A stretch of DNA of 60,740 nucleotides, the filler included. It is 4 parts of 4 records of this genome, joined end to end, with 100 filler letters (N's around TTAATTAATTAA, not from the genome) between each part and the next. Parts side by side here need not be neighbours in the genome. Positions count along the whole stretch, not along the records: positions 15,130 to 46,618 come from SRR20825019_2812; 3 more parts are not named here. One strand, given 5' to 3'. A program made the position numbers and the translations under genes. Below the pieces are notes generated by a model, which saw only the letters and a program-made list of their open reading frames with translations, made no database searches and was not told the DNA's origin. Position 1 is the stretch's first letter. Each line of letters starts with the position of its first letter. This document shows, piece after piece, positions 1-51,879 of this stretch.

Positions 1-1385
1 GAGTCACTCAAGGAGTCTTCCACTGTTACACTTCACGAAACGGACTTCGAGCGCATAACCCCCGTAGCAACAAATTATTTGGGAGAGCAACTCAGCTCAA
101 GGCGGGAACCTGTGCCTAGCCAAGTCTAGGCAGACATGGTTGGCATTTCCGGTGAGATCAATATGACTCTTGTGGCAGTTAGGTCTCAGTCGGTCCTCAC
201 CCTGCGAGGCCGCCTAGCTGGCCCCTAGCTGGGCCGAAAACAAAAGGATCTCCAAGAGTGTAAAGTGTGTATGGATACGCACCCTAGCTTAAGCCGTGCC
301 ACGGCAATATGTACGTGATTCTTATGTGTCAAAATACACTCCTGTGAATAAATGTACAGGCCCCAGGCCACGGAAGACAGACTGACCTTCCCAGACCTCT
401 TCGATCTTCAACAACTCTCGTCTCATCGCAGACACCATGTGACACAGACCGGCAATTCACACTCACTGTCAGCCATCAACACCGCACAAGGGCGGGCTGG
501 CCAGGCCGGCATCTGGTAAAATCTGAGCCGGTACTGGTGTGATCCGGTCACCGTGCCGTCCGGTCTCCGGGAGGTCCGCCGCCGGAGGCTGGGCGCGGGC
601 CGAACCGTGGGGCCCACGCACCGCGGCCGGGCTGGCCCCTTGGAGCTCGCTCAGGGCTCGACCGGCACCGCCCCGGGGCCCGGCCGGGCCTGCCCGCGTG
701 ACTCCAGTTAGTCGGGTCCGGGGGGGACCGGACGGAGGACGGGAAATTCAATTGAATTTCACGGTTTTGCAAGTTTTGGTTTCAGTTTCAGGTTCCGTTC
801 GCCGGCAATGACGCAGCCAACCAAGACTGAATGACCCCGGGCGCGGGGCGGCCCGCCGCACCCGGTCGGCGCGCCGGCGCCGACCGGGATCCGGAGTCAG
901 TCGGCGCCGGGCTCGGACGCGCGGTGCGCGGCGCCGGGCGGGTGCCGGCGGTGAGTGACGGGGAGTCGGCCACCTTAACCAGCGAGTGGGCCGGGCCCCG
1001 TCGCACCCGGCCGCCCCGCTCCGGCGGCCGGGCCGGCCCCGCCCGCCGGGGCCGGTCACGGGCCGGCCGAGGCTCCGACTGGGTGGACCACTCCTGGCCC
1101 GCGGCCATGCACACTCACTTGTGACGTCGTTCAGCCGGCCATCACAACGCGTTGCAGCGACCGGACCGGACTCGGGACACCCGGCACCCCCCGGGCCGCC
1201 GCGGGACTGGGCACCTAGAGAGCCTCCGCAGGGAGTAGGGCCACAGGCATGGCCAGTGGCTGGTGTCGTGACGCTGTGGAACTCCCTGAGCCGACCAAGA
1301 GTAAGACCAGTCCTATAAGTGTCCACACGTGGTCAGCGGGCTCTTCCCTCAGGGCGCTGGGGGAGGTTCCGGCCTCACGCTAGAC

Positions 1386-4300: not shown

Positions 4301-5724
4301 TCCTTCTCGTCTGCATTCTAAGTAGCGCCTTCCTCTCCGGCGTTAGGTTCCCATTCAGTGTGCTGATCATAGCTTTTGGAGTATTTGCTGTTTTTGTGGT
4401 ATGGTGATGTAGCTGCAGTCTCGAATTCACATTGACGTAGGCTGCGTAGGTGCAAGCTGCAGATGGTCTGTTTGAGTTCGGGTCGTACCTAGGGGCCTTC
4501 CTGTACCTTCTGCTTAATGTCAACGGCGCCTACCAGCTAGACCTACTGGGGAGGAGGTACGTTCGTGCAGTTTAAGTTTCATGGCAGACAGAGTTCTAAG
4601 CTCGGGGGCTTTGGCAGGCTTTACATGTTTGGTGTTCTTCGGAAGAAAGAAAACGTGTTCCTCACCGCCCGCAAGCGGTTGTACAGTAGTGTGCTGTTGC
4701 AGATATATTCACCAAGGGTTGCCAAGTACATATTCAGGATACATCAAGGTGAAGGTGCCGATGATGAGCTGGCACAACTTGTCAAGTCTAAATTGGAGGC
4801 GGAATCGGTATGCGCGTCGGAGACGACTGTATCACGAGGCGGCCCGAAGAAGATCCGGGCTGTTAGTGGTGAGAGCTTGGACAGTGACGGTGAATTGAGA
4901 GGCGCAGGTGTTGATAATCGCGTCGGAATCGTGGAGACAATGCAATCGTGTTTTGTTTTGCAGACGGATATCGTCGGCTTCACATCGTAAGTTGGCTCAG
5001 GGCCCGGAGTTCGCCCAAGTAGACTCATGGTATTGCAGGTATTGCAATGGCGCATCAGCAAAAATGGTCGTGCGGCACTTGGGCCACCTCCTGGAGGGCT
5101 TTGACAGGGAAACCCAAAAACTGAAAGCGTTCAAAGTGAAAACGGTCGGCGATGCCTACATTGCCATGCAGCCGGGCGGCGCAGGCAAGAGTGTGATAGA
5201 AGCAGTGACGACGATCATCTCACTGGCCCTCAAGATCCGCAAGGCGTGCCGAAGGACAAACAAGGCAATGGGGACTAAGTTCGCACTGCGATTGGGGATT
5301 GGTTGCGGTGAGAGCACGCTGTGCCTCATAGGGGAGAAGCGGATGACGATGGATCTGATCGGGAGGGGGTATGTGGCTACGGGGGCAATGGATGTGCAAG
5401 GTTGTCGGCTGACATGTTGTGGGCAGGGTGCATGAGGCGTCGCTGATGGAGCAGGGCGGCATGGCAGACATGGTGAATCTGTCCAGCACCGTAGTGGATA
5501 TCATTGTTGCCCACGCGAACACAGCAGGAAAAGTCAAGATCAACAACCGCAAGAGGTTCAAGCTGGCCCTTGAATGGATTGTGGAGCACGTTCTTCTCCG
5601 AGAAACCCCCGGTCGGATACCCCCGCACCTGCTGGGGATCTTCTTGGTGGAAGGGAAGGCGTTCCCCCCCTCTGCGCTGAAGGCTGTGCGGAGCACATAT
5701 AAGGAACAACTGACTGATGTATGA
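1386..5724 (+). CDS. Multi-exon membrane class III nucleotide cyclase (two TM clusters, two cyclase domains)
   Basis: ORF fragments join across GT-AG introns (e.g. 1620-1677, 1893-1948, 2111-2161, 2975-3037). Domain 1 motifs: ERIKVTHS, MKIGVATG, YDIWGGVVNKASRL. Domain 2 motifs: QTDIVGFT, KVKTVGDAY, LRLGIGCG. Hydrophobic exons precede each domain. Confidence 0.85.
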
Positions 5725-5913
5725 AGTGCAGAGTCGTTTGGCTTCACCCCCAATGTAAATCTATTCTTTAGTAAGCGCAAGTGTAGCGGGGCAACGCTCC
5801 GAGGACGCCTCAGACCGTCTTCCGGCGGCGCGGGTATTCACAGGCACATGGCCATGGCCATCACGCTGAGGTATACACCTCTATATATACAGGGGGCACT
5901 CGCCTAACAGTGC

Positions 5914-7192
5914 TTACTGGATGGGGCGGAGAATATCGTGTGCGCCATATACGCGCTCCTTCATGATATCTTCGGCGGCCTGCATCACCTCCACGAATAC
6001 CGGACTTGTCCTCAGGGAGCACAACAGGTCCGCCAGCGAGCGGCACGCCACCTCCACTGACCGCACTGTGGACACGTCGACGGCCGCGCCGCTGAGAGCA
6101 GCCTCGATGGTTCGCTCCACATCACTCCGCTTGGTATCGTCGAGGCGGGAGAGGGTAAGGTCGTACGCATCTTTCAGCAGGGCCGTGGAGGCCACGCGGG
6201 CGACACCACCCTGGGAGCCCACGGCCATCACCTCTGAGACGGCATCACAAGCCGAGACAAAGAGCTGCGGGGCTGGTCAGACAATCGCACAAACGCCAAG
6301 GAATGATAATACACACCTGAGAGCCAATGTTTTCCTTTCCATAACGATGGAGCATGTCACGCACCAGGGTCTGTGCGCGGGGATACGAGTCCTTGCCATT
6401 GGCCTGCTTGGCCACAGGGCCAGTGTTGCTCATTTCTCCAAGGATGACGTTGTTGGACGAGCTCCTCTTCGACGGAGACAGTACAGAAAGTGTGGTGTTG
6501 GTGGGGCTCCCTTCCGGGGTCTGGGTAGCAGCCATGTGGGCGAGCAACTGGTCAAGACCGCTCACAAACTTGGCGATAAGATACGGCTCGCAGTTGGCAA
6601 GGCGGGCCGTGCTGAACAGGGAAGCACACGCCTTAAGGGTGGAAGAGGATACGCCAGGCGCGAGTCTCTCAAGGAAGCTGACGGTTTCAGCGACGTTGCT
6701 GCGCTGGCGGAAGGTAATACGGACAAGGATCTGATATCAGAACGTAAAATTAGTGGTGTACTACAGCTCGCAGTGGTGCGCATACCTCAGCCAAACAGAT
6801 GCTGAGACGCTCCAAGTCGCCTTGGTCAACATCGGCAAGGCGGACGCGAGCCACGCGGGAGAATAGAGGGCCCAGCGTCGTCTCAACACGGTCCAGCTTG
6901 CAGTCCATACCGGCGCCCGGTCCGAACTTCTTGGCCTGCGTCATCTGCTTCAGTGCAGCTGGCATTTGGGTCACTGGGCTCGCGAACATGACGACGATTT
7001 TATGTTGTATAGTTGTGTCTGTAGACAACATATATGAACTAGAGGCAGCAAGGAGAACCCTGACCTGCAAGTCAGCGGTCATCAGGTGGTTGGATGGTTG
7101 GTGTCTGGGTCGGCCCTTGTTGACTGGCACGGAAGCCCGGTCGTTGTCACGTTCATCAAAGGAACTTCCAAAACCTTCAGTGACGACAGCAT
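5914..7192 (-). CDS. Multi-exon hypothetical protein (start uncertain)
   Basis: Minus-strand ORF pieces 6750-7220, 6245-6565 and 5914-6231 read as protein-like sequence and are separated by short GT..CTGAC..AG segments. No family recognised. Confidence 0.45.
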
Positions 7193-8488
7193 CCGGAACA
7201 GCAGCGTGCCTGCCCGGCACTCGGTCGTCGCGGGCCGGCTTGGGGCCGCGCCGGCGTCGTAGGCCCTTGCTGATGGCCCCCGGCGGGACCGGCAGCCGCC
7301 TGCGGGACCGGCAGCCGCCTGCGGGGCCGGCGGAGTCAGTGACCGGGTGCCCGGCGTGGCGCGCAGGACGTTGGCCGGCCTTGCTGGCTGGCGGGGCGAT
7401 GGAGGCATGGGATCAGCGGCCGGGTGGACCCGAGTGGTGGGGGTGCGTCGTTGGGACTTCACGATCATGATAAGCCGTTAGTAGTATCGCCACTGATCCT
7501 CGGGTGGCGGATTGGCATCGGGCCTGATGCCACTGTTGGTTGCAAAGGCATTTCAAATGGATTCACAGTCACTCACCGGATAGCCTTGGCCTGGTTGAAA
7601 CAGGCGTTGCGAACGGGAACTTTCATTTCACCCAAGCACAACGTATAGAAAGCTGCCTACCCTCGATAATACATTTATTGATTGCCACATGACAACTGTA
7701 CTTCTGTAACGTTTTGTACCCCCAGGTGCACAGTGCGGGCCCTTGCGCACCCGGCCCGCCGCCCGGCCGGAGTCATCAGTCAGTGCGCGCCGGGCCCGGC
7801 CGCCGGCCGCGGCGCCCGCCCCGGTCGCGGCGCGGGCAACGCCGACTCGCGGGGCCACGGCGAGCCCGGGGCCCGACCGGACGGCCCGCCGCGCCGGCCC
7901 GGGCCGGGGCGAGCAGGGCGGGCCGCACGGGGCTCAGGCGAGCGGGCACGCTCTGCATGACCCGCCCGGCCGAGCCGAGTCCCCCGGGGCCGGGCCGACT
8001 GGGTGGCTCCGCATCAACCGAACCGGTGTCACAGGCCTCGCGCGCGGCGGCCGGCAGTCCGGTCCGGCCGGCTCGCGCCGATCGGCTCGCGCGGCCCACT
8101 GCCTCGCCGTCCGCGGGCGAGGCGACTCGCCGGCCGCCCGCCCCCCCGGTCGGGCGAGCCAACAGTTTGACGGCCGCCACTAAGTGTCATGCCGTCATGG
8201 CCGCCCGTGAGTATGCCCGTCCAGCGGCCCGGTCGCCGCGCTCGTCACTGATGAGTGCATCGGTCGCCCGGGCGGGGCACCAGGCGTCCCGGGCCACAGG
8301 CCGGGGTTCCGCCGGCCCGACAGGAATCAGGAATTCTGGAGGTTCTGGAGCCCCGCCGGTGGCCCGACGGATAACCACTGGTACCAGTGAGCGGCATCGA
8401 ACCGCTTACACCATTCTTCATGTGTAAATAGCGGTGCTGAGCGTGGTTAGCGACGGTGATAGCTCTGCAGGTCTGGAGGCTCACGGAG

Positions 8489-11400
8489 ATGAAGTCCACG
8501 ACGCTGGGCTCGGCCTGGGAGGTTCTCGAGCGACTCCGGCAGGAGAGTGACGTCTCGTTCCCTCCGCGCCATGAGTACAGCATTCGTCACGCCAAGGTAC
8601 ACTGTCGACGTCATGGCTGTGATAGTATGGTAACGTGTGTGTGCAGCACCGCAGCTTTGAGGCCTTGGCCGACAGGTCGGAGTCGGGGATGACGTCACGA
8701 ATGCAGGCACCCGCTGCCACGGTGAACATGCCTTCAGTGCATGGGTACGTCACAGAGGCACGGGAGTCGATGGATGAGTTAGGCCAGTGGGACCAAGTGA
8801 GTGATGGTGGCTCCACTCGCGAGCCCCCCCTGGTGACCTACTTGGGGATGGAGGCCATCCAGAGCACCAGCGGGGAGGCGAAGCCAAGGACGAGCCGGCC
8901 ATCGTCTGCCAGCACCGGCGCGGGGGGGACGGGAGCTGTGCGGCAGGGCGCTCAGAACACGGCGGTGGCGCCGGGCGGGGTGATGACGATCGAAGTGGGT
9001 AACCGAGCCCACACAGATGTTCAGGTGATGTGGAGGCGTAGGGATCGGAACCTCATTCTCACTTTGTCACCTGATAGGTGCGGGAGATGCGGGCGATGGA
9101 AGGCGTGGTGCAGATAGCGAATGAGCTCGGTGCGCTGCCCGTGGCGACGTCACAGGTATCAGTCGGAGCAAAGTTCTCCTACTTGGTCCAGCAGTCGGTG
9201 CTTCCGCGGCTGTTTGACCTCGTTCGTTTACGGAACGATATGTATATGAACGACGAGATACGTGTGTACGCGCTAAAGATGTGGCTCCGCCTTGTCAAGA
9301 CCGATGGGAGCGGGATCCCCAAGGCGCGGTACATCGCCATTTGTGAGTCTCTGCAGCAGTCATTGCTGCCGTCACAGTCGGACAAGGAAAGGCGAATTGC
9401 CGCCAAGGTACTGCGCCGGCATTGCCTGACTCGGGTCCAACAACTGATTCAAACCGCAGAACGACTGGCTCGTAGACTCGCAAGGTACCTCCACAGTGGA
9501 GTTCGAGGCGTTTTTCCTTTCGATATTCCAACTGCTGTCGGTGTGGAACTCCAACAACAATCCCACGGCCATTATCGAGGTAGCGCCCCCGCCCGGCGTG
9601 CACTGGCATCACTGACCCTGATTGGTGCTGCACAGAGCCTGGGGGCTATTGAGGATGTTCTCAAAAGCGAAGGCTTTCTAGACCACGTCCCTCCATCAGG
9701 GGCCCCCTCACCAGCTGAGCCGGCACATCTCATTCGGCCCGTTTTTCACAAGGTGACCCGACTCCTCGGCGCCAGTCTTGTCCGCTGACTAGCGCTGCCG
9801 CAGGTGCTTGTGCGCAAGACCCGGGAAGGGATGGCAATAACAGCACCCCGAATCACCCAGCGTCCCACCAGTGCACGCTCTGTCGCGAGCAGTCCCGGGC
9901 GCCTGGGCACCGGTGGACTTATGAACGTGTTGGTATCCAAGGTAACGGCGTGCGGTATGTTGTATTGTTAGGATATATTCCTGATGTGAGTCCAGTCCCG
10001 GAACAACACAACGATGAAGAAGTTTACCACTTCATTCCACCGCGTTGCCTATGGCACGGACCCTGCCCCGAATGACCACCCTGCGGCGGCCCAATACGAC
10101 GGGGGTCCCTCGGCCAGGGCGTATTCCCGTCCGCTGTCCGCCACGGAAGTCCGTCCGGTGCGACATCAGCCGTCCATCCCTCACCGCAAGTCCCCGTCGC
10201 AGGCGCAACAGCGCGCGCTGGTAGTATTGGTGAGTGGCGATGTGATCTGACGGCCAGCCCCGCTAAGATGATTTGTACTAAGGGTCCCAAACAAACGTGC
10301 TCCCGTGTCGCGCGCCCGACGGCTCCCGCCCATCGAAAGCCCGGGCGCGCCTCCGGCACACCGCGCGCGCCAGCCCGGGACCTCATTCGGCCTGCCAGTG
10401 CGGCACCGCGGCAGGCACGACCAGGGTCTGGTGTGAACAAGAGCAAGGGCAGGACTAAGCCCATCCGGCGGCCGGTGAGCGCGGGCGCGGTACTGGGCCC
10501 TGGGCGAGCGAAGACTGGAAGGAAGAAAAAGACCCCCACGGCTCCAATAGTAGAGGGTGGTCCGGCCTCGGTTCCGCCCATAGACGGAGATGACGACGAG
10601 ATCATTCCAAGTGACGACGAGTTATCTGTTGGCGGCGACATGCTCAATGCTCTGGAGAATGGCCGCCTTCTGCCGCTGGAGCTGCGGAAGCGAGGCGAGG
10701 CGATGTTCCATGATAAGGTGGTCACCCTTACTCATGCCGAAGCCGCACGTGCGGGAGAGGTGGTGCCCCTGAGTCTGTCGGGACCCATTCCGGGGTCTGG
10801 TCTGGTGGGACGGGCGGTCAAGATGGGCGACTCAGTTGTCAACACGTTGTTGGTCGGGGTTGAGGGCGAAGCATTAGTGGGAAGAATGGACAGCAATGGG
10901 CATCTGTGCCTGGAGGGCGCTTACTCGGGATGGTCGCTGGACCTCCACGGCGACCCCCACGGTCGGATACAAGTGAACATCAGTTGCGATGGGGCCACCC
11001 AGGCTTTTGTCATCGGTGACGACGGCAGTATTTCGCCTGCACACCATCCGGACATGGTCTTTGTGTGCGGCGCAGAGTTTGTGGATCTTGGTGTCCAATC
11101 ACCGAGTCGTTTCTCCATTCCCAAGGGCCATATCCCCGGCCCTGCCGGCCAGGAAGTTATCGTGTACCCTGAGGTGTCCGACGACAGCCTCACCTATGTC
11201 TCCTCGGAGGCCGGGCCGCGGAGTGGTCACGTAAGTGTGCAGGGGAGTGTGGACAGTCGGCCGCGCACAACCGCACAAATGGTTGCGGGATATGAGCGGT
11301 TCATCACCAAGCAGAGTGGAGCCAAGGTCATTCCATTGAAGGTAGCTGTGCTAAGGCGCGGACATATCTGTGTGGCACTGATTGATTGCACTTGCAGGAG

Positions 11401-13917
11401 ACGCACGCCCTTGAACGACTGATAGAGCTGCGGTCGCAGCAACGCAAAGACCTCGATGACATCCGTCAACCGGCGGCACGGGATGTGGACTTGGTTGTTG
11501 ACCCAATCGAGCTCCCCGACCAGTACAGCCCCCACAAGGACTTGCCTGCGCCTGACAAGCTCGTCTCTGAGAGTAGCACCGAAGGGGTCGTCGACGACAT
11601 CCGCGAGCGCCCATTGAACACTCTCACTGGTTTGTTGGCTCGGGTTCTGCACGACCTTGCGTGACACTCACATGCTTGCACAGATCATGAAAGAGAGTGG
11701 CGGAGGAAGACTGAATTCGAGGAGCACTGGGCGTCCACGCCGTACTTCAAGCCAATAACGACCGCTGCCGGCCGTGTGATGCCAGAGCACCCGCTCACTC
11801 AGCTCGGTGAGCACAATCTCAACTATGATCTCGAGGCACAAGCCCTTGCCGCCGCCAAGACTGATGCCGAGGTATTCCGGTTCGAATGAGGTATTCCCTG
11901 ACGGTGGCTGACCTTGCTTGCAGCTTCGGATGAAACTACGAATGCAGGGGGAGGCGGAAAACGTAACGCGAGCTAATAAGACGGTGGCATCGAGCCCCAA
12001 GAAAAAGGTCTCGGGTATTCTGGCAGGTAAGTTATGGTTGAACCCTGAAGTACTCCCAAGCGGGGGGGTGGAGGGAGGGGGGATTTGAGTGGATTTTATG
12101 ACACATGCATGCAGACCCGAGTGAGAAGCACCGACAAGCCAGGAAGGCTTCGATGAAGGAAGCGGCCAACGCCGAGGCAGATGTAGGGACTCTTATCCCG
12201 TGCACTTTCCACGGTGTTACTGATGCTGATGGGTTAGGTTGCTGCCACGGGGGAAGCGGGCGCAGGGAGTGTCACTGCCGGGGCTTTCTCCTCCCTTCTG
12301 GCTAAGGGATGGGGTTATGAGAAGATGGACTACAAAGTTATCAATGTGGGCACCGGTGATGCCAGGCACAAGTTCAAGTACAGGGTAAGTACTACTGCAC
12401 CTTTGACGAGGGCATTCTGACGAAGACCAGTTTGATGATGGTGTTATGGGCCCGGCGCGTGCCTCGGTGGCTGAAAGGATCAGCAACATCAATGAACTGA
12501 CGAGGCCATCCACCGCCCCGTCATCAAGGTCTCCTCAGTACAAGGTTCATGGGACAAGCCTTCATCAGGCCGTGCAGTCGCCTGTGGAGACTGATGCCGA
12601 CAAAGATAGTGAGGAAGGCAGCCCCAAAAAGGTGGCGCGGCCACCCACGGGGTCGGTGCGCCGCATCAATGCGGGACCGCGGGCGATGCAGATCAGAGCC
12701 CAGGTAAGGATGATGACTTCTCCGGTGCCGAGGTGGCTCATGTGCTCATGCAGGAGGCTATTGAGCACGCCAAGGCCAAGTACACAGCACAACACCCCGA
12801 GATGGATACCTTTGTCAATCGTGTTTTCAAGGCCGGAGGGCGTCAGCCGTGTGAGGCATGTGTACACGACGATGTGCCGGGATTCCTTGAAGATCCGGAG
12901 GTACTGCGAGAACATAAACCTGTGGTACGTAATCGGATGTGATCCGGTGTATCTATCGTGACCCTGGTGGGCAGGAGCGCGATGATGGATGGGTCTTCAA
13001 GCCCAAGATCAACGGCGTCCGCCATTCACTGGAAGACTTTGATGGTAATAATGCCGCAAAGATGGCGAGTACGTTCAGGTAAGAACGTCTCAGTCGCTGA
13101 TGCAACGCTGCTCATCCATGGCTGCATAGGTCGTGTGAGATCTTTTTCTTGTATGTTTTGCGCAAGGGGACAACGGACCAGCGCCTCTGTGCCGCGGAGT
13201 GCATGCGGCGGCTGGATATATCCTCCTTCTACAAGGACTTGATTGCGACGCTCCGCGACCCCGAGCCCGCACTACGCTGCAAGATACTGGAGTGTTTGCG
13301 CGATATTCGCCAACCCAGTGACATCCGTTTCATGATAGCTGAGGTGGGCATTCTTTCAAGCTCTGTGATAATTTCTTCTGACGAAAACGAATCCAGGCTA
13401 GCGTACCTCTATTGAACGACGAGGAACCCACGGTGAGGGCGGTGGCTGCTGAGTGCCTGGCGGCGTGCGGATTCCCGGAATACGCCAAGGATATAGCCGC
13501 CCTCTTGACCACAGAGAGCAACTCGCGGGTGGTGCGTGGGGTCGTGGATGCGTTGTCCGTCCTAGGATGCGAGCAAGAGGACATTGCCAAGGCAATTCCT
13601 CTCTTGACGCGGCCGGCGTGCGGTGTGAGTGGCGCCGTAGAGAAGATGCTGGTGCGACTGGCGCCCAAGAACTTCCCTCTCTTCTATGATGAGGTAGTGG
13701 CTGAGTGCAAGGCGGCCATGGCGGCCAAGACGGTGGCACCGTGGAAGGTGGGTGTAACGAAGTGGAGGTGGGCCCGCGAACTGACACCACAGTGGTGCTT
13801 GGTGTCTAGGTGCAGGGAATTTTAGACCAGGTCCAAGAGGCAACGGTCAAGCTGCGCATCGGAAGCAGGACTCATCAGTACACACGCCAGGATTACGCCT
13901 CACAGGTCAAAGGGTGA
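8489..13917 (+). CDS. Large multi-exon protein (possibly two genes): low-complexity middle, C-terminal HEAT/ARM-like repeats
   Basis: Successive + strand ORFs are linked by short introns. HEAT-like segments include LRDPEPALRCKILECL, LNDEEPTVRAVAAECL and TESNSRVVRGVVDAL. Last exon GILDQVQ...SQVKG ends at TGA 13915-13917. Confidence 0.55.
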
Positions 13918-14101
13918 CAACACAAGATAAACAAGCACTAACAGGAGATAACACCGGCGAATGGCTGACAAAATTGTTATTAATCCTCCCTTGCATTCAG
14001 CAGCGTCTCAACCAGCTTCATCTTCTATCAATCGTTCCATCAGCTCCAGTCATGCGGCTCCACCAAATTCGAGATCTATAAGGTTGCGAAGGCGGGGCCT
14101 C

Positions 14102-14870
14102 TTACATGGTAAGCTCCATGATGGCGTTGACAATATCACCGTTGTTAGCCTTGATGGCCTTGACGGCCTTGGCGCGGGTGACACCGGACTGGGACATGAC
14201 GAGCTCAATGTCCTTGGCCTCAACACCGGTCTCATCAACCTCGCCATCATCACCCTCATCAGCCTTGGCCTTGGCACCGTCGGCGGCGGCCTTGGGGGCC
14301 TCGTCGCCAGCGGCGGCGGCAAGCTTGGAGGCGGCCTCCTGGGCGGCACGCTGGTTCATGTCCTCGATCTTGGCCTCACCGAAGATGACGTAGGTGTCAG
14401 AGGCAGGGGACTTGTACACCTCGGGGTTCTCGATGTTGAACAAGAGCTGCAGACGACCCCGTCAGCCCCAGTCACAACGCGGATCCTTACAAACACATAT
14501 CTCCCCCAGCCCTCCTCTCATAATTAATCTCATAATTCTCCCCGCTCCGTAAAGCATAACCAAGACAACTAACACGCCATATGCAAAGTCACTTACACCG
14601 CGGCCCTTCTTGATGGAGACACGGAGAACACCAGGGTAGGACTTCATGCCAAGCTTGAGGAGGGCCTTGCGGGCCTTCTTCTCACCACGGCTCTGCACGC
14701 GACCAGTCAGCACACGCACGCCTCCTGTGGGACGATACTAAATCACACACCTGCTTGGATCCGTCCTCACCCTCGGCACCAGCCTCGGGGGCACCCTCCT
14801 CCAATCCGGGCATCTCGTCGTCAGAGGAAGACTCCTCGTGCTCCTCAACCTTGGGGTTCTTGTCGGCCAT
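14102..14870 (-). CDS. NACA: Nascent polypeptide-associated complex alpha subunit (3 coding exons: 14870-14751, 14692-14597, 14446-14102)
   Basis: Motifs QSRGEKKARKALLKLGMK and NPEVYKSPASDTYVIFGEAKIED, plus the UBA tail DIELVMSQ...DIVNAIMELTM. Introns at 14693-14750 and 14447-14596; a further 5'UTR intron at 14882-14938. Confidence 0.95.
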
Positions 14871-15000
14871 TTTTTAACTATCTATTGCTTCAGGTTAGGA
14901 CAACCACAAAATAGCGCACTGAGTATAGAGTGACTCACCTGGGAGTATTACACTGACGAATACAAATTGTAGCTGTTCATATATAAAATTGAAACGCTGG

Positions 15001-15029
15001 TCCATCCATCCGTCCATCCATCCATCCAT
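15001..15029. repeat. (TCCA)n microsatellite at contig end
   Basis: tccatccatccgtccatccatccatccat runs directly into the N linker. Confidence 0.9.
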
Positions 15030-15129
15030 NNNNNNNNNNNNNNNNNNNNNNNNNNNNNNNNNNNNNNNNNNNNTTAATTAATTAANNNNNNNNNNNNNNN
15101 NNNNNNNNNNNNNNNNNNNNNNNNNNNNN
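15030..15129. other. Artificial contig linker
   Basis: N44-TTAATTAATTAA-N44 (stops in all six frames). Composition switches from eukaryotic GC-rich to bacterial AT-rich. Confidence 0.98.
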
Positions 15130-22698: not shown

Positions 22699-22735
22699 AA
22701 AAAAGAAAGACTGTCCTCTCAGACAGCCTTTCTTC
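22699..22735. terminator. Bidirectional terminator
   Basis: AAGAAAGACTGTC-CTCTCA-GACAGCCTTTCTT between convergent genes. Confidence 0.7.
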
Positions 22736-22757: not shown

Positions 22758-23234
22758 TTACTTCTTTTTATTTCTCAGTCCATCACTCACGCCGAGTAAA
22801 AAGATCAAGCCATAAACAATCGGAATTATTGGAATTGCTTGTATTGCGCCAGGTCCTGAGTTTGGTGAACAACCGACGTCTGTTTTAATGGCATTCATTG
22901 CGAATTTAGCTTCTGGAAGTGCTGCATAAACGTCTTTCAACGAAGTGTGTATCGCATCGAAATCCTCCATTCTTTTAACCGAAGGAATGATCTTTTCGGT
23001 CAGACTTTTTTGCAAATCAACAGCGGTATAGGGATAGTCTGTACTAAAATCTTTTGATCCTATGCTTGACCCCTTCATGTAGTAGTTGAACAAAAATGGA
23101 AGGAGTTCAATCCACCAATCAGGAGTTGAGATACATTCCGTATTTGTCAATAACTGTTTTGTCTGAAGACTTCCGCTTGAAGACTTTCCGCGAAGGAAAA
23201 GTTCAACATTTCCAAGTGATAATATTTCATTCAT
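22758..23234 (-). CDS. Hypothetical protein (~158 aa) with C-terminal hydrophobic GxxxG tail; paralog of next gene
   Basis: Start MNEILSLG; tail IPIIPIVYGLIFLLGVSDGLRNKKK. Confidence 0.8.
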   Translation of the reverse strand: MNEILSLGNVELFLRGKSSSGSLQTKQLLTNTECISTPDWWIELLPFLFNYYMKGSSIGSKDFSTDYPYTAVDLQKSLTEKIIPSVKRMEDFDAIHTSLKDVYAALPEAKFAMNAIKTDVGCSPNSGPGAIQAIPIIPIVYGLIFLLGVSDGLRNKKK

Positions 23235-23253
23235 GATTTCTGTTTTTAATGTC

Positions 23254-23724
23254 TTACTTACCACCAAAAAAGTAGCCTATACCATATCCAATTGCGTACA
23301 CCGCTACAGCTCTAACTACAATTACAGCAATCACCGGCGGAATCATCATAAGTGTTGGATCACTGCTGTTTCCAAGACTTTCTTTCACTTTGTCACTGTA
23401 TTCAGCAACAAGCATTTTCATCTCTGGGTATTCGTAAAAAATTTCCTTGACGATCGTATCTGCTTCTTCAACGCTGGTCGCTTGTTTCAATTTTGGGATA
23501 AGTTGATTTTCAATACGGAAACCCAACTCTTTCACGGAATCAGGAGTTTGATTGACGCTCGCATTTTTAACCAATTCATTTGAACGCGCAAATAGGTCGA
23601 ACATTGGAGGAAAGAAGAAATCAAAAATCGGTGGCCATTTGATGCAGCCGTCTGTTCTGAAGTCGTTAGGAGATTGTTTCTTTAAGATCAATTCAAATTC
23701 TCCAAGTGATAATAAATTACTCAT
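23254..23724 (-). CDS. Hypothetical protein (~156 aa) with C-terminal hydrophobic GxxxG tail
   Basis: Start MSNLLSLG aligns with the paralog; tail IPPVIAVIVVRAVAVYAIGYGIGYFFGGK. Confidence 0.8.
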   Translation of the reverse strand: MSNLLSLGEFELILKKQSPNDFRTDGCIKWPPIFDFFFPPMFDLFARSNELVKNASVNQTPDSVKELGFRIENQLIPKLKQATSVEEADTIVKEIFYEYPEMKMLVAEYSDKVKESLGNSSDPTLMMIPPVIAVIVVRAVAVYAIGYGIGYFFGGK

Positions 23725-23803
23725 ATTAGTTTTTTTTAAGTTGCCTACTCTATGAAGGACTTTTCGGCTTTCGTCCTGATGAATTTGCATCCAATCATTG
23801 ATG

Positions 23804-23831
23804 AGTGCCGTTCAGTTCAAGAACCTAACCA
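23804..23831 (-). promoter_or_regulatory. Putative ECF-sigma promoter TGGTTAG-N17-CACT
   Basis: Same motif and spacing as the sites at 28346-28373 and 28397-28424. Confidence 0.75.
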
Positions 23832-24014: not shown

Positions 24015-26783
24015 CTACTTGGACAATTGTGCTCTTCGTTTCAGTTTAATTAGGACGATCAGCAGAAAAATTCCAACCGTGGAGCCACCAAGTATCCACC
24101 AATTCCCCCAAGAAATATGGGTGTTGAGCGAAAGTTGATTCGAGCCTACCAATACCATGCTTGACCAATAATGTGGGTGCGCGCTAAATTCGTCGACGTT
24201 TTCGTTGCTCAAATACTGGCGCTTCGCGAAGGTCAGCGCTTTACTTGGGTTGTTTGCAGGTAATCTTTTATAAAAATCACTTAGAATTTCACTGTTCGCT
24301 GCGTGATTTACTTTCCAGAGCGATCCCATAATATTTCGACTCCCCGTTTGCGCAAAACTTTTAGACAAACTCATTACTCCTTCGCCTTTCATATAATCGC
24401 CCGAGCCAGTTTCGCATGCGCTTAGAACGATTAATTCAGGTGCACAATCGAGCGTCGCTAACTCGGAAGTCAATAGGTGACGTTTATTGATTGGGTCTTT
24501 ACCAGAAAAAGCGATGGAAGCTTGATGGAAGCGCTCGTCCCACGTTGTCGCATGTGTTGAAAGGTGAAGGATACGATAATAGGCTGCGTTCGCAATGAAT
24601 TTTTTCTTCGTCGCATCTTTCCCCAACAAGGAAATTCCACCCAATTTCAATCCTGCGTTGATTTCACTTTCCGAATACGGCAATTCAGCGTACTCTGAAC
24701 CATTTTTAAAGAGTGGAGCAATGCCTAAAAAATTTTCTTTGAATTGATTTTGGTGATGAGGCTTCATCAAACGCTTCATAGAATAAGCATACCTGATTTC
24801 ATAATTTCTGACGAGGTAATCTAGTTTCTTGAAATTGGTTCCTTTTCCTTTCGCAAATGCTTCAAACGGCAAAAGTGCGAGCGGTCCGTCGGGAATAATG
24901 AGTAGCTCGTGTTGTGAAAGATACGTTTCAAAAGGCTTTATAAAAGCTGAATAACAGCCAACAGCAGCACGTTTGTAGGAAGTGAATGCACCGTAATCAG
25001 GTGTCGCTAATTGTGTTCTAAGTATGTTTAAGCGGTTACTTAAGGTCTCCGAAACGGACTCAATATGTAGGTAAATTTTTCCCTTAATAATTCCAAAGCA
25101 ATACACATCTTGACTGCCGAAATAGTAGGTGATGGTGTTGACGGGAAATTTACGAATGAAACGGTCAAAATCACGCGTGTCAAAGGAGTTTGTTGTCGCC
25201 ATATTTCTATAAATGGCGGGATATTTCTTCTTTACAATCTCCGTAAGAAGCAATAGTTCTTGACTTAATTGAAAGTCCTGCTCTTTCAGAAATTTCATGG
25301 AAGCACCTTCGTTGTTAAGTCCCGCTTTGGACAATTGCGCTTGAATGGATTCTGAATAACTTCTGTATCGAATCAACTCTTGGATTTCCTTTGGTAATGA
25401 TTGCCGATTTTTCAGTGCACTGTCAAAGTTTGACTCGGATAAAAGAATCCCTTTCGTCTTTTCTGTCAATAAAACACCTTTCAGCAACCAGGATTCATCT
25501 TTTGAAAGCGCATAAAGTGATGTGATTACTTGAAGTGCCTCCTCACCAGTATCGTGTAATTCTCGAATGAATGACAGCTTTGAATCGAGATTCGTATATT
25601 CTCTTCTGTAAAGTCCCTCAGCCAAAAAGTAATATTCGTAATGTCTATAAGAATGTTCTAAATGGCCCTTCATCTTCTCTTTCTCGCCAAAAACACGGTA
25701 GGCTTCTGCTTTCTTCAGCAGCGCTTCCAAAATAATTACCTCGGGATATAATTGAGAAATGTTCGGAAGTTCATGATCCGATGTTGGATGGAAGCGAATA
25801 ATGACAGATTTAAGTGCCGATTGATAATGTGCAAGCGCTTCACTTGGATTTCCCTGTTTCAAAAGATTCTCTCCGCGGGCTAAACATAATTTACCCCAAG
25901 TTCTGTGTTGCCTTTCCGGTAGACACACCGTTAATTTGTTCTCGGCGAGCATGAAGTTGCGCTGGGCTTCTACAAAGTCACCTTTTTTGGTTAGAATCAT
26001 TCCAAGTGAAATATACGCACCAGCCTGATATCCCATGATTCGATAATCTCCTTCGATGCGTGAAAAATAAGCAAGACTGCTCATCGCGAAGCGGATTCCG
26101 GTGTCATATTCTTCGGTGTTCAGTGATGCAGCGGCAGCATTTGAAGCGAGTAATCCTTTCGCTTCATTGGATTCTCCAGAAAGTTGTAAGCCCTTGTTGT
26201 AACAATCAAGCGCACTTATAAAATCTCCTTTATTCGCGAATGCTAATCCTAAATCATTATAGCCTAAACCGATGAAATGTTTGTTGTCGACAGTAACGTT
26301 TGCTTCAATAAACTTAGTCAACAATCGAATGGCTTGCTCATTTTCTCCCAATCGAGTGTAAATATTTCCCAATGGGTGATATACGTGATTAATTACATTG
26401 AGGTCCAAATAATTGAATGCTTCAAAATCAATTAATACGTTTAGATAATCTTCTTTTGCTCCGAAATAATCGCCTCCTTCTGATTTGACATAACCTCTGT
26501 TCGTAATTGCCCAACACCAGGCTATTTTTTCTGCTTGAGTTGAAGGTTTGCGCCAGTTCGTGCGCTCCATTTCATCAATAATAGAGATTGCTTTTTTATA
26601 TTCCAACGACGCCAAGTGCTGCTTCGCAATTGCTTTGTGCGCATTGATCCAAAGCTCTAGTTTCTTTTGCTTCCGATAGGTCTGAATTTCATGCTTTAGT
26701 GCATCAATGGGGGCATTCGCATGTGCAACACTTGTCGCTAACGAAACAAAGACTAAAGCGACAAGAATCAGGGATTTCAACAA
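24015..26783 (-). CDS. Exported TPR-CHAT (caspase-like) protease with C-terminal membrane anchor
   Basis: Signal peptide ending AHA; TPR repeats; CHAT motifs LIIPDGPL, ILHLSTHA (His), VLSACETG (Cys), SLWKVN, HPHYWS; C-terminal TM followed by KLKRR. Confidence 0.93.
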   Translation of the reverse strand: MLKSLILVALVFVSLATSVAHANAPIDALKHEIQTYRKQKKLELWINAHKAIAKQHLASLEYKKAISIIDEMERTNWRKPSTQAEKIAWCWAITNRGYVKSEGGDYFGAKEDYLNVLIDFEAFNYLDLNVINHVYHPLGNIYTRLGENEQAIRLLTKFIEANVTVDNKHFIGLGYNDLGLAFANKGDFISALDCYNKGLQLSGESNEAKGLLASNAAAASLNTEEYDTGIRFAMSSLAYFSRIEGDYRIMGYQAGAYISLGMILTKKGDFVEAQRNFMLAENKLTVCLPERQHRTWGKLCLARGENLLKQGNPSEALAHYQSALKSVIIRFHPTSDHELPNISQLYPEVIILEALLKKAEAYRVFGEKEKMKGHLEHSYRHYEYYFLAEGLYRREYTNLDSKLSFIRELHDTGEEALQVITSLYALSKDESWLLKGVLLTEKTKGILLSESNFDSALKNRQSLPKEIQELIRYRSYSESIQAQLSKAGLNNEGASMKFLKEQDFQLSQELLLLTEIVKKKYPAIYRNMATTNSFDTRDFDRFIRKFPVNTITYYFGSQDVYCFGIIKGKIYLHIESVSETLSNRLNILRTQLATPDYGAFTSYKRAAVGCYSAFIKPFETYLSQHELLIIPDGPLALLPFEAFAKGKGTNFKKLDYLVRNYEIRYAYSMKRLMKPHHQNQFKENFLGIAPLFKNGSEYAELPYSESEINAGLKLGGISLLGKDATKKKFIANAAYYRILHLSTHATTWDERFHQASIAFSGKDPINKRHLLTSELATLDCAPELIVLSACETGSGDYMKGEGVMSLSKSFAQTGSRNIMGSLWKVNHAANSEILSDFYKRLPANNPSKALTFAKRQYLSNENVDEFSAHPHYWSSMVLVGSNQLSLNTHISWGNWWILGGSTVGIFLLIVLIKLKRRAQLSK

Positions 26784-26841: not shown

Positions 26842-26872
26842 AAAAAAAGGACCTCACATCAATGAAGTCCTT
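26842..26872 (-). terminator. Rho-independent terminator between the 478-aa gene and CHAT
   Basis: Minus strand AAGGACTTCA-TTGATG-TGAGGTCCTTTTTTT. Confidence 0.75.
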
Positions 26873-26891
26873 CTAAAAAGTGTTTTTTAGG

Positions 26892-28328
26892 CTATTTTTT
26901 TTGCTTTTTTCGACTCAAGAACAGGAGTAAAAGTAAGAGTACAATAATTCCTAATAGAATATATACAATCCAACAGCCGCACCATTTTGACGGCTTTTCA
27001 TTAGTCAAAACAGGGTTGGGACACGTCGAAACAGCAATATTGGTGATTACAGGATCGTTTTCATCGAAAATAATGGCTGCTTTTGCCGTTATATCTTCAC
27101 CAATCACGTAATTATTTTTCACTTTCACTTCAAACGAAAACATATCTCTCGTTGTAGCGGGATCGTTTAAGAGCGTATCAGACAGTCCACTGAGGACTAG
27201 GTTGTGAAACTCGAAAATCACTTTGTGATTGCTCTGATCGATCCAATAATTTGCTTGGGTATTTGAAATAGTTGAAGGAAATCCAACAAGCGCATTGGAT
27301 TGATTTAAGGACATACCGTGCGGAAGTCGTGTTAAATGAATCGTTGACAAATCATGCATTTCATCAAGGCTTACTTCCACTTTTACATAACGTGTTTCCT
27401 TCTCACCCACATTTTGAAAGTGAATATTGTAGTTGAGGGTTTTACCGCCAACGACACAGTCGGTGTTTTCGGGAGTTACTTCAATTCTATTCGGATCGTG
27501 GGACCCGCTAAATTTCATTGCGATCGATGCCGTTTCTTCCGTGAAAATAGGAGAAGGAACTAAATCCGAACGGTGAAAGGTTATCGCAACGGGAAAACTT
27601 CCCGACTTTTCTGAACCTTTGTATCTAAATGGAAGTAACATTGACCGCTCTTCACCTGGATTAATTGGCGATCCGATATTCCATTTCAATTCGTGCGTGT
27701 TTCCTGCAAATGATTCGCAATGTGCCAAAAATGAGGGACGTGTGTTGTCATTCATCGCGTACTCAAAATCAGCGGAGTGCTCCCCAAAATCAAGGGTGAT
27801 ATAGCTTTCAGGATTCAGAACATTCCCACCTTCAGGATTTCCGTAAGTCACAATAAAATATACAATGTCACCTAAAACAGCATCACGGTAGTTGCGAATG
27901 TCGATATAATTTGAATTCGTTACGCCGTTCAGTATTTTCGGCAAACTTGGAACAAATGGCTGACTTAAATTTCCGTAGTTAATGTCTACACCAACCACAG
28001 GTGGAGGTCCCGTATTTCCATAATTTTCGGTAACAATTCCGAAAATTTTGTAGGACGAGGGAGGGAAGTTGGTTTTGATTTGACTAGGATTATGGAATGA
28101 ATGGGCTGCAGCCTGCCCCTGAATTATTCGGTAACCACCATCGCCGAACCACCATAAAGTGGTAAATACCGACCGTGGATTTGTGGGTTGAAATGCCGGA
28201 GTAATTTGAAATCTATCGCGATTTCCTGGAGTGTGTTGCACGGACTGCTGACTGAGCGTGAAACCGCTAAAAATCAGTAAAAATGCGGTTATCAAAGATG
28301 TAATTAAACGTTTAAACATAGGATTCAT
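26892..28328 (-). CDS. Exported, C-terminally anchored protein with PKD-like and DUF7619-like domains
   Basis: Signal peptide; WWFGDG; SHDPN...YNIHFQNVG...AAIIFDENDPVITN; C-terminal TM followed by RKKQKK. Confidence 0.8.
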   Translation of the reverse strand: MNPMFKRLITSLITAFLLIFSGFTLSQQSVQHTPGNRDRFQITPAFQPTNPRSVFTTLWWFGDGGYRIIQGQAAAHSFHNPSQIKTNFPPSSYKIFGIVTENYGNTGPPPVVGVDINYGNLSQPFVPSLPKILNGVTNSNYIDIRNYRDAVLGDIVYFIVTYGNPEGGNVLNPESYITLDFGEHSADFEYAMNDNTRPSFLAHCESFAGNTHELKWNIGSPINPGEERSMLLPFRYKGSEKSGSFPVAITFHRSDLVPSPIFTEETASIAMKFSGSHDPNRIEVTPENTDCVVGGKTLNYNIHFQNVGEKETRYVKVEVSLDEMHDLSTIHLTRLPHGMSLNQSNALVGFPSTISNTQANYWIDQSNHKVIFEFHNLVLSGLSDTLLNDPATTRDMFSFEVKVKNNYVIGEDITAKAAIIFDENDPVITNIAVSTCPNPVLTNEKPSKWCGCWIVYILLGIIVLLLLLLFLSRKKQKK

Positions 28329-28396: not shown

Positions 28397-28424
28397 TGGT
28401 TAGGGTTTCTTTCTTCGAGAGACT
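28397..28424 (+). promoter_or_regulatory. Putative autoregulatory ECF promoter TGGTTAG-N17-GACT
   Basis: Upstream of the sigma gene. Housekeeping-type TAnnTTTG boxes also occur at 28425-28432 and 28465-28472. Confidence 0.72.
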
Positions 28425-28479
28425 TACCTTTGAAATCAAAAAAAAGTCTGCGCACGGAAACGCGTATATTTGTCAAACT

Positions 28480-29073
28480 ATGCCAAGATTATTTAGAACA
28501 TATTCTGATCAGGAAGTTATAGAAGGAATCAAACAAGGAGGCGCGTCGGAAGACAAGGTGATTTCGTTCTTACTTAAAAAGAATGAATCTCCCATTTATG
28601 GCTATGTATTGAAGAATAGTGGTAATCGAGAAATGGCTTCGAGTATTTTGATCGAGGGAATTATGGAATTGTTGTTCAATGTGAGAAAAGGAGCATTTCG
28701 CGGTGAAAGCAGCTTGAATACCTATCTTTTTTCCATCTGCAAAGGACTTTGGCTCAAACACCTGCGTAAAGAAAAGAAACACGCGGATTGGAATGATCAG
28801 TTGGATGAAGCTTCGGAAGAAGATACGATCAAGGAACTTTACGGCGATTTAAAATTGAGCTTAGAAGCGGTTCTATCACATATCGGAGCAAGCTGTAAAA
28901 AAGTACTGGAATTGTGGAGTATGCATTATTCCATGACCGAAATTGCTCTACACATGTCCTATAAGAATGCGCAAATAGCTATGAATAAGAAAAATAAGTG
29001 TTTGACTGCACTTAAATCGCATGTCGCGTCGAATCAATCGTTGAAGGAGCACTTATTAAATTATCTGCAATGA
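28480..29073 (+). CDS. ECF-type RNA polymerase sigma factor
   Basis: Region 2: SSLNTYLFSICKGLW. Region 4: CKKVLELW...SMTEIA...KKNKC. Confidence 0.9.
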   Translation: MPRLFRTYSDQEVIEGIKQGGASEDKVISFLLKKNESPIYGYVLKNSGNREMASSILIEGIMELLFNVRKGAFRGESSLNTYLFSICKGLWLKHLRKEKKHADWNDQLDEASEEDTIKELYGDLKLSLEAVLSHIGASCKKVLELWSMHYSMTEIALHMSYKNAQIAMNKKNKCLTALKSHVASNQSLKEHLLNYLQ

Positions 29074-29801
29074 TGGAGACGGAAAAGAGAACGGAAGTAA
29101 TCGAAAATTATCTAAGTGGGAGGTTATCGGATGTCGAACGAATGGCATTTGAGAAGACACTTTCCGAAGATCCGCTTCTGCAGGAAGAAGTGAAAATTCA
29201 GCGCGGTTTAGGTCTTTTACTCGAAGCACGTGCGAAAGATCTGGAACGCCAACGGATTCATCAACTGCATCGTGGTGCAACTACTTCTTTTCCGTGGAGA
29301 AAAGTTATCGCTGCTGTTTTCATCTTAGCGTTGATCTCTGTGCCGGCTTATCTCTGGTTACAAACGTCGAATTCTACCAATTCTGTTGAGTTAGCCGCAG
29401 AATACTTCGCTCCGTATCCTGATAGAATTACACAAATGAGTCAAGGCGATAATGGTGATTTAGAAATAGCAATGAAACAGTACAATGCTGGAAATTATGC
29501 CTTGGCAATACCTTATTTTGAACAAGTTTCAAGCGATTCTTTGCCGATAGTGACCATCTACCTTGCCGTTTGCTATGTCGAAAATAATCAACCCGAAAAA
29601 TCAGTAGTACTGCTCCAATCTACTCTTGATTCGGGAGTGGAAAGCGCGTATATTCCTACGATCAATTGGTACTTGATACTTGCGCAGTTGAAAAATGATG
29701 ATGCTAAAAGTGCACAAAAACTCCTAGAGCACTATGTGAAGTCAGGTTATTCCTACAACCGTGAAAAAGCCATTGTGCTGAAGGAAGCGCTCAATCCCTA
29801 A
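29070..29801 (+). CDS. Putative anti-sigma factor (cytoplasmic N-domain, TM, periplasmic TPR)
   Basis: IENYLSGRLSDVERMAFE; TM KVIAAVFILALISVPAYLWL; TPR-like C-terminus; ATGA overlap with sigma. Confidence 0.8.
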   Translation: MMETEKRTEVIENYLSGRLSDVERMAFEKTLSEDPLLQEEVKIQRGLGLLLEARAKDLERQRIHQLHRGATTSFPWRKVIAAVFILALISVPAYLWLQTSNSTNSVELAAEYFAPYPDRITQMSQGDNGDLEIAMKQYNAGNYALAIPYFEQVSSDSLPIVTIYLAVCYVENNQPEKSVVLLQSTLDSGVESAYIPTINWYLILAQLKNDDAKSAQKLLEHYVKSGYSYNREKAIVLKEALNP

Positions 29802-46618: not shown

Positions 46619-46718
46619 NNNNNNNNNNNNNNNNNNNNNNNNNNNNNNNNNNNNNNNNNNNNTTAATTAATTAANNNNNNNNNNNNNNNNNNNNNNNNNN
46701 NNNNNNNNNNNNNNNNNN
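46619..46718. other. Artificial contig linker
   Basis: N44-TTAATTAATTAA-N44. Confidence 0.98.
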
Positions 46719-51779: not shown

Positions 51780-51879
51780 NNNNNNNNNNNNNNNNNNNNN
51801 NNNNNNNNNNNNNNNNNNNNNNNTTAATTAATTAANNNNNNNNNNNNNNNNNNNNNNNNNNNNNNNNNNNNNNNNNNNN
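51780..51879. other. Artificial contig linker
   Basis: N44-TTAATTAATTAA-N44. Confidence 0.98.

Follow-up and report, generated by a model that had tools for sequence, protein, structure and literature searches.

A tandem pair of predicted C-tail-anchored membrane proteins behind a candidate ECF sigma promoter in Flavobacteria-like bacteria

We analysed a stretch of DNA of 60,740 nucleotides (nt), hereafter the window, in which four parts are joined with N-TTAATTAATTAA-N linkers, and focus on two tandem genes, A and B, within the 31.5-kb contig at positions 15130-46618 (43% G+C). The genes lie head to tail on the minus strand with 19 nt between them, and the following features make up their immediate locus (tail classes A and B are defined below).

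23254..23724, minus strand: gene A (P0001, 156 amino acids), with a predicted beta-hairpin, four-helix bundle, G/S/D/P linker and class A transmembrane tail (..VYAIGYGIGYFFGGK)
22758..23234, minus strand: gene B (P0002, 158 amino acids), a paralog with a class B transmembrane tail (IPIIPIVYGLIFLLGVSDGLRNKKK)
23742..23777, minus strand: DUF805b leader RNA (Rfam RF02914), 41.6 bits against a gathering score of 35.6, full model length (1-35)
23800..23831, minus strand: promoter-like box TGGTTAGGTT-N14-CACTCA, before the pair, with the leader RNA about 22 nt downstream
22711..22726, either strand: likely bidirectional terminator, a G+C-rich hairpin with T runs on both strands (the scan scored the plus strand)

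A first-pass annotation of this DNA had described tandem paralogs with shared motifs and with two different hydrophobic tails, both carrying GxxxG, and the open reading frames (ORFs) at these coordinates agree with it on each count. P0001 and P0002 are 24% identical over 110 residues (E 1e-8, BLASTP, single comparison), and their pairwise alignment contains every quoted motif (M1, L5-S6-L7-G8, E11-L12, L14, C27-I28, P31, I76-P77, K80, P100-E101 and K103). Both tails read as quoted, with GxxxG at G146xxxG150xxxG154 in P0001 and at G148-V-S-D-G152 in P0002, and the motif is kept within each tail class. Longer ORF forms of the two genes (178 and 169 amino acids) were rejected as real genes because it is the ATGs at 23724 and 23234 that line up with the M-x-N-T-I-S-L-G start of the family's proteins and, for gene A, because the RNA motif fills the extra 5' part. 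The terminator sits between the pair and a convergent DUF1801/YdeI gene. Comparison with a strain about 5% diverged (run X7) showed that synteny is lost at 22700; alignment extends from the terminator as far as 23836, a point five bases upstream of the promoter-like box, past which the sequence is replaced. Among the differences listed between this strain and the pair (as far as 23518) are 19 synonymous and 14 non-synonymous codon changes, and the three codon changes that fall inside the tails are all synonymous.

A Kyte-Doolittle scan found one hydrophobic segment in each protein, at the C-terminus (residues 122-153 of P0001 and 127-154 of P0002), and none at the N-terminus. Both proteins, along with 12 relatives and further genomic copies described below, thus have the predicted layout of tail-anchored proteins, namely a single transmembrane segment near the C-terminus and no N-terminal signal. 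Neither protein contains GG in its first 30 residues, in line with the earlier statement that signal peptide and double-Gly leader are both missing. An AlphaFold2 model built from a 14-sequence alignment (mean predicted local distance difference test score, pLDDT, 77; predicted template modelling score, pTM, 0.64) places strands at 3-6 and 11-14, helices at 32-57, 61-80, 85-98 and 100-118, a short linker and a transmembrane helix at 130-153; the model from a single sequence was poor (pLDDT 51). The N-domain that had been called helical is accordingly predicted to hold four helices between residues 32 and 118, preceded by a beta-hairpin formed by the conserved N-terminus M-x-N-T-I-S-L-G-x-F-E-L, which would be part of the fold. 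The check proposed earlier, for a known fold of the N-domain by Foldseek, returned no match above background in PDB (best E 0.6) or BFVD (best E 0.13) and no fold was assigned; a wide VIA-align search reached only generic helical proteins (best Z 7.1, under the tool's informative level for helical bundles), a sequence profile searched against PDB got no better than E 0.66, and the best ESM Atlas score, 0.76, lay under the lead threshold.

We then searched for relatives of the pair by exhaustive hmmsearch, using a two-sequence profile against 1,835,955,588 representatives at a cut-off of E 1e-3, and found 12, of which 6 scored at 1e-10 or better. All 12 are 107-161 amino acids long and laid out as in the pair; the single named one is a hypothetical protein from a Crocinitomicaceae metagenome-assembled genome (MAG), and the hosts are marine and freshwater Flavobacteria-like bacteria. 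With these relatives, and more from genome searches, the pair can no longer be called strictly orphan. A word-index homology search with P0001 returned nothing; scans against Pfam, NCBIfam, PADLOC and PHROG gave nothing meaningful for the pair or for 14 family members; and metagenome scans with the class B alignment and with P0015/P0003 gave no matches. Pattern scans used the narrower alignments A3, A4 and A6, with A2 and A5 being too diverse. No longer, fused forms of the family appeared at E 0.01 or better, which is weak evidence, and literature searches found no account of the protein family. One carrier turned up among 401 genomes sampled across the class, and four (one a weak match) among 401 in a second sample (the family sample), drawn from the taxonomic family of the window's closest genome (66% trigger-factor identity); the survey takes in G114 and G198, which are flagged as unpublished and on which no particular claim rests. 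Twelve members among 1.84 billion representatives, plus a cluster (P0021) described below, make this an extremely rare and unnamed family with a clear, conserved two-gene design.

The tails of the family fall into class A (..V-Y-A-x-G-Y-x-x-G-Y..) and class B (..I-P-I-V-Y-G-L-I-F-L-L-G-V-x-x-G..K-K-K), with a few intermediates, and are the best conserved part of the proteins within each class. Within class A the tails are 46% identical and the bundles 27%; within class B the values are 58% and 28%; and between classes both tail and bundle drop to 24%, while the N-terminal hairpin is 43% identical across both. The order A then B recurs in locus L001 (genome G001, a Flavobacteriales MAG), again with a 19-nt gap, and in L041 (G738, a Crocinitomicaceae MAG), where class A is followed by an intermediate. 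A further A/B pair may exist, because a contig of 9,824 nt is listed for P0015 (class A) as well as for P0005 (class B). The maintenance of two conserved tail classes in A-then-B order suggests that the tails work together in the membrane.

A wider profile revealed a divergent branch with a proline/aromatic-rich insert, which adds cluster P0021 beside genomic copies in G744 (L042, a divergent pair) and G681 (L043, a single gene). In members of this branch (L042 8084-9127, minus strand; L043 7882-8403, plus strand; P0021) a run of P-F/W/Y-P repeats follows the conserved Cys-Pro, and the tails differ from those above. One tail of the G744 pair is hydrophobic and the other is amphipathic and lysine-rich.

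The second tail of the G744 pair bears on whether the C-terminal helix is a constitutive anchor at all, since a helix that is amphipathic and not hydrophobic would suit Bax-like latent proteins, soluble or peripheral, in which the helix stays tucked on the bundle until triggered. Such proteins would also account for structure alignments that cover residues 31-156 as one compact five-helix unit, and for charge flanks that are inconsistent, the lysines lying C-terminal of the helix in class B and N-terminal in the divergent G744 protein. However, the hydrophobic stretch spans 20-28 residues on a flexible linker, as is typical of anchors; single-chain models often pack a transmembrane helix onto a soluble domain artificially; and no Bcl-2-like fold was matched above background, the Z of 7.1 noted above being the best and generically helical. 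We therefore regard latent soluble proteins as decidedly unlikely.

The DUF805b leader RNA ends 17 nt 5' of the gene A ATG. Among the five loci with clear family genes, it precedes the first gene above the gathering score in three (the window, L042 at 44.1 bits and L043 at 39.3 bits), falls under the cut-off in L041 (28.9 bits) and is absent from L001; under a crude null, the chance of three or more such loci in five is at most 5e-7. The motif matched in 88 of 151 genomes of the class, with up to 13 copies per genome, and in none of 14 control genomes (the tally takes in G114 and G198, flagged as unpublished). At the best 30 loci (L005-L034) an ORF starts 15-30 nt downstream in 29, and none of the 30 ORFs is a DUF805 gene: they include rhodopsin, YccF, DUF4407, subtilase, type IX secretion system cargo, outer-membrane beta-barrel and TerB proteins, and 12 are without a family. 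The stem covaries between copies. DUF805b is thus a general leader in the sampled class and is not specific to DUF805 genes. The gene A copy has nothing unusual about it, with a score above gathering and the usual position; what differs is the protein family downstream, which is new for the motif and recurs with it in three to four of the five loci. Among the matches listed, literature searches found no functional account of this RNA. Separately, a 12-nt perfect palindrome (GAATGCGCATTC) lies between promoter box and leader RNA in G744 (L048), with imperfect versions in G738 (L047) and at window positions 23778-23799; elements of this type could be an operator or a 5' hairpin.

Upstream of the pair, the contig carries a divergent cluster that encodes a sigma factor of the extracytoplasmic function (ECF) type together with a TPR-CHAT protein, and two further copies of the promoter-like box lie between its arms.

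24015..26783, minus strand: TPR-CHAT protein, 922 amino acids (Pfam CHAT E 2.4e-47, plus TPR families)
26892..28328, minus strand: DUF7619 protein, 478 amino acids, with a signal-like N-terminus and a C-terminal transmembrane segment
28342..28373, minus strand: box TGGTTAGATT-N14-CACTAA, before the DUF7619/CHAT operon
28397..28428, plus strand: box TGGTTAGGGT-N14-GACTTA, before the ECF sigma gene
28480..29073, plus strand: ECF sigma factor (NCBIfam sigma70-ECF E 2.6e-10 and SigY E 7.7e-13, neither reaching its cut-off)
29070..29801, plus strand: anti-sigma-like protein, 243 amino acids, with an N-terminal anti-sigma region, a transmembrane segment at about 73-100 and a C-terminal TPR

The longest sigma ORF runs from 28396, and translation probably starts with the ATG at 28480, which lies downstream of the gene's own box; the anti-sigma start overlaps the sigma stop by 4 nt. 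The box emerged when we set the 290 nt upstream of gene A against the cluster's remaining intergenic regions. Its consensus is TGGTTAG(G/A)(T/G)T, with a spacer that sets ACTnA 17 nt after the eighth base at all three window sites. TGGTTAG itself occurs six times in the window, about the chance expectation, and three of the six copies are those at the box sites. The pair, like the sigma gene and the DUF7619/CHAT operon, therefore lies behind this bipartite promoter-like sequence and is correctly oriented to it, as a member of the sigma regulon would be.

To follow the box across genomes we searched for TGGTTAGRKT-N15/16-ACTNA. Orthologs of the sigma factor (E 1e-35 or better, 45-58% identity) were present in 13 of the 401 genomes of the family sample, and the pattern was found in 10 of 12 sigma-bearing genomes (G591 left out) and in none of three without a close ortholog (G681, G001 and G195; Fisher p=0.02 under a crude null). 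Of 15 box hits, 13 have an ORF of at least 150 amino acids downstream, within 150 nt and on the same strand, and the hits share bases beyond the pattern, with GGTTTT after TGGTTA, and ACTAA. Besides G738 and G744, eight further genomes have the box ahead of sigma-linked genes. In G761, G763 and G732 the box precedes a DUF7619-like gene adjoining the sigma gene; the other box-linked genes include several for secreted proteins and those of the family, and one hit has no recognisable gene downstream. A box with 18-nt spacing stands 122 nt before the ATG of the family genes in G738 and G744; the orthologous cluster there (anti-sigma, sigma, DUF7619-like and CHAT genes; sigma identity 46% and 50%) has a separate genomic location. 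Two of four family carriers have the sigma, compared to 13 of 401 genomes overall (p=0.006, crude null). The earlier suggestion that the pair is induced by the ECF sigma fits this pattern, in that the candidate promoter is common to pair, sigma gene and operon and tracks the sigma across genomes. One box-linked gene (L073 1523-1984, G717:C42) encodes a 153-residue protein without a signal peptide, with a basic, Cys-rich tail that has three Cys in its last six residues. Literature searches (TGGTTAGG with sigma, among the matches listed) found no account of the box.

Box counts alone are weak, because reversed-pattern controls also hit; what carries the case is where the box lies, how it is oriented and which extra bases the hits share. 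It is conceivable, then, that the TGGTTAG box belongs to another regulator or is no promoter, and that a housekeeping-type pair is expressed via its DUF805b leader, the tie to sigma and CHAT being a coincidence. The pattern is short and post hoc, neither L001 nor L043 has it, searches of the 12 sigma-bearing genomes left 10 in which no family member was found, and DUF805b precedes many unrelated genes (none of the 30 ORFs being DUF805). Coincidence does not readily explain, however, why the box lies beside the sigma gene itself in four genomes (the window, G761, G763 and G732), why it tracks the sigma (10 of 12 versus 0 of 3), or why its orientation and distance to start codons are fixed in 13 of 15 hits, and we judge a coincidental link to be unlikely.

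The TPR-CHAT protein has hydrophobic segments at 1-24 (signal-like) and 893-915 (a predicted C-terminal transmembrane anchor), and the LSTHA and SACETG dyad motifs are present; a search of genome contigs found no relatives of it. CHAT adjoins the pair in the window and in the run X7 strain, which is about 95% identical, and had no match in any of the five other family loci. More broadly, tblastn with CHAT, DUF7619, sigma, anti-sigma, VWA and YdeI queries against these five loci (L001 and L041-L044) gave one 22-residue fragment at E 0.5, and flanking genes at the other family loci are unrelated in ORF lists and Pfam scans. On this sequence evidence the pair is an autonomous module. A CHAT-to-pair operon was also considered and rejected as the main route because the 290-nt gap holds the pair's own promoter box and leader; read-through is possible, and no terminator was predicted between CHAT and the pair. 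A terminator-like hairpin with a T run (26845-26874, minus strand), which could be an attenuator, does lie between the DUF7619 and CHAT genes, within the apparent operon.

Other genomes have a comM-like Mg-chelatase gene nearby: in G738 and G744 it adjoins the CHAT cluster, and in G681 it adjoins the only family gene (L043 8871-10460; L060 12197-13732; L061 10-708). This points to an insertion site between CHAT and comM that is old and shared. In G738 (L060 12048-12200, G738:C191) a TGGTTAGGTT...ACTAA box directly follows the CHAT stop and precedes a 27-residue hydrophobic micro-ORF with GxxxG, in the position that the pair has in the window; the micro-ORF could be a tail-only relative, a remnant or chance.

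The first-pass annotation had proposed that A and B are pro-toxins resembling two-peptide bacteriocins, and in this reading pro-domains of about 125 residues would be cut off by a protease such as CHAT, leaving tails that pair as a toxin against competitors. Class IIb bacteriocins (lactococcin G, the plantaricins and lactocin 705) are likewise encoded by two adjacent genes with GxxxG in the hydrophobic helix of each. The paralogs here are adjacent, their two different tails are class-conserved and the most constrained part of the proteins, the tail is preceded by a G/S/D/P linker that is flexible and by the conserved motif I-Q-A-(I/L)-P, a possible cleavage site, the pair would be co-regulated with a protease gene, and the G738 box after CHAT leads into the GxxxG micro-ORF. 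Class IIb precursors, however, are short, under about 100 residues, with a double-Gly leader of about 15-30 residues, a dedicated C39 ABC exporter and an immunity gene. P0001 and P0002, at 156 and 158 residues, are 3-5 times longer than such precursors, which counts against the bacteriocin reading, and come from a Gram-negative Bacteroidota host with no double-Gly or other leader and no signal peptide.

Nor was a C39/ABC exporter or immunity-like gene found on the contig or recognised in four other loci. As the first-pass annotation had noted, no C39 exporter is adjacent, with neither a Peptidase_C39 nor an ABC-transporter domain in the 25 larger ORFs scanned on the 31.5-kb contig; among L001, L041, L042 and L043, ABC transporter genes occur only in L043, outside the Pfam scan. 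The comparison of tails with bacteriocin-type models that had been proposed gave no support, with no Pfam family matched by the tails alone at E up to 10, and one of 14 full-length members touched the Lactocin 705 family at a non-significant E of 0.21. Furthermore, the CHAT protein is predicted to be extracytoplasmic, whereas the linker of a tail-anchored protein would be cytoplasmic; hydropathy thus agrees with the earlier caveat that the pair looks cytoplasmic and CHAT periplasmic, the predicted topologies put the CHAT domain and the linker on opposite membrane sides, and cleavage of the pair by CHAT is unsupported. Finally, family genes occur in G001 and G681, where the sigma cluster has no close ortholog. 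With only GxxxG and adjacency shared with class IIb systems, bacteriocin-like pro-toxins with an inhibitory pro-domain are very doubtful. Tail constraint, the I-Q-A-(I/L)-P motif after the linker and the G738 micro-ORF keep a membrane-active reading alive at low probability.

The sigma cluster resembles one studied system. In Myxococcus xanthus, release of the ECF sigma factor DdvS is proposed to depend on the extracytoplasmic TPR-CHAT domain of DdvA, a transmembrane anti-sigma, and DdvS is reported to control a dedicated regulon (PMC11506125). Both systems would tie an ECF sigma to an extracytoplasmic TPR-CHAT protease-like domain. Unlike DdvA, the window's anti-sigma (243 residues, short TPR) and TPR-CHAT protein (922 residues, with its own signal and anchor) are separate, and DUF7619 is added; and unlike the DdvS regulon, which includes CBASS and CRISPR, the putative window-type regulon consists of secreted proteins and the tail-anchored pair, in another phylum.

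This likeness raises the question of whether A and B are self-directed effectors, holin-like or abortive-infection-like, that oligomerise via their glycine zippers and depolarise their own membrane in the manner of a DdvS defence island. Small single-transmembrane proteins with highly conserved glycine-zipper helices would suit such a role, as would apparently tight ECF sigma control by a sensor resembling DdvA, an anti-sigma that governs anti-phage defence genes. The patchy, rare distribution (1 of 401 and 4 of 401 genomes in the two samples), a G+C content lower than that of the contig (38.6% versus 43%) and the position of the pair at a synteny break point the same way. Against this, PADLOC returned no meaningful hit, the one family touched being in one of 14 members at E 0.007; PHROG hits were all weak (best E 0.006) and to families of unknown function; the neighbours are housekeeping genes with no defence islands; and most of the other regulon members seen are unremarkable secreted proteins, a better match to a response to envelope or nutrient conditions than to suicide. 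Self-directed effectors are improbable on this evidence. A more elaborate proposal, to which we assign a slightly smaller chance, is that a DdvA-type split periplasmic sensor leads A and B glycine-zipper tails to disrupt the membrane of producer or competitor, with the bundles inhibitory until released by oligomerisation or proteolysis and the G738 micro-ORF serving as a tail-only version.

The nearest working analogy is the group of stress-induced tail-anchored proteins ElaB, YqjD and YgaM (DUF883), which end in a glycine-rich transmembrane helix followed by basic residues. Like A and B, these are small paralogs under a stress sigma, with no signal peptide, a helical cytoplasmic N-domain and one C-terminal transmembrane helix; ElaB of E. 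coli is described as an inner-membrane protein, C-tail-anchored and under the regulation of OxyR and RpoS (PMC6389858). There is no sequence relationship, with none of 14 family members matching DUF883 (Pfam, E up to 1), and the pair differs in being about 50 residues longer, in its N-terminal beta-hairpin, in its tandem arrangement with two tail classes, and in phylum and sigma.

Taken together, these data lead us to favour, with about even confidence, the reading that A and B form an ECF-sigma-induced, self-contained bicistronic unit of C-tail-anchored membrane proteins. The unit would run from promoter box through DUF805b leader RNA, gene A and gene B to terminator and would be transcribed by the sigma factor; each protein is predicted to join a cytoplasmic N-domain (hairpin and four-helix bundle) by a flexible linker to a single transmembrane helix of glycine-zipper type, through which A and B may pair. 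Because the unit carries the putative sigma target promoter in the window genome and at least two others, the pair is most likely made when the envelope-sensing module releases the sigma. The TPR-CHAT protein would probably act upstream, in signalling, by analogy with the proposal for DdvA, and not on the pair. Of the tail-anchored heterodimer that had been suggested earlier, the tail-anchored architecture and the recurring A-then-B order with class-specific tails stand, and binding between A and B is a proposal; a prediction of the A and B complex scored 0.12 against a mark of 0.34, a run made without alignments that weighs neither way.

Several observations weigh against this unit. The case for the promoter, for co-transcription and for sigma control is computational throughout; the pattern came post hoc from the window, and its reversed forms, used as controls, still hit 0-4 times per genome. 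In G738 and G744 the region upstream of the sigma gene did not yield the exact box, and the DUF7619-like genes there have only near-matches in front of them. All 10 further sigma-bearing genomes are without the family, and G001 and G681 have the family without a close sigma ortholog (best matches 28% and 31% identical); because each occurs without the other, the link between sigma and family is facultative. At the protein level, class B tails are flanked by acidic residues on the N-terminal side and finish with a run of lysines, so that the positive-inside rule favours the opposite orientation, and the fold model is only moderately confident at the pLDDT and pTM given above.

As for the rest of the window, the linkers lie at 15030-15129, 46619-46718 and 51780-51879. 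Positions 1-15029 have a G+C content of 58%, compared to 43% for 15130-60740, with mostly short, GTG-started ORFs, and this piece may come from a different organism in the bin.

The window cluster presents itself as a split counterpart of DdvA, the only TPR-CHAT anti-sigma that has been studied, and the box provides a candidate promoter motif, and so a first putative regulon, for an uncharacterised Bacteroidota ECF sigma factor encoded beside a TPR-CHAT gene. Should the tails prove membrane-active, the pair would represent a new type of sigma-controlled effector; if they are not, it would add a Bacteroidota example to the little-studied tail-anchored proteins of bacteria.

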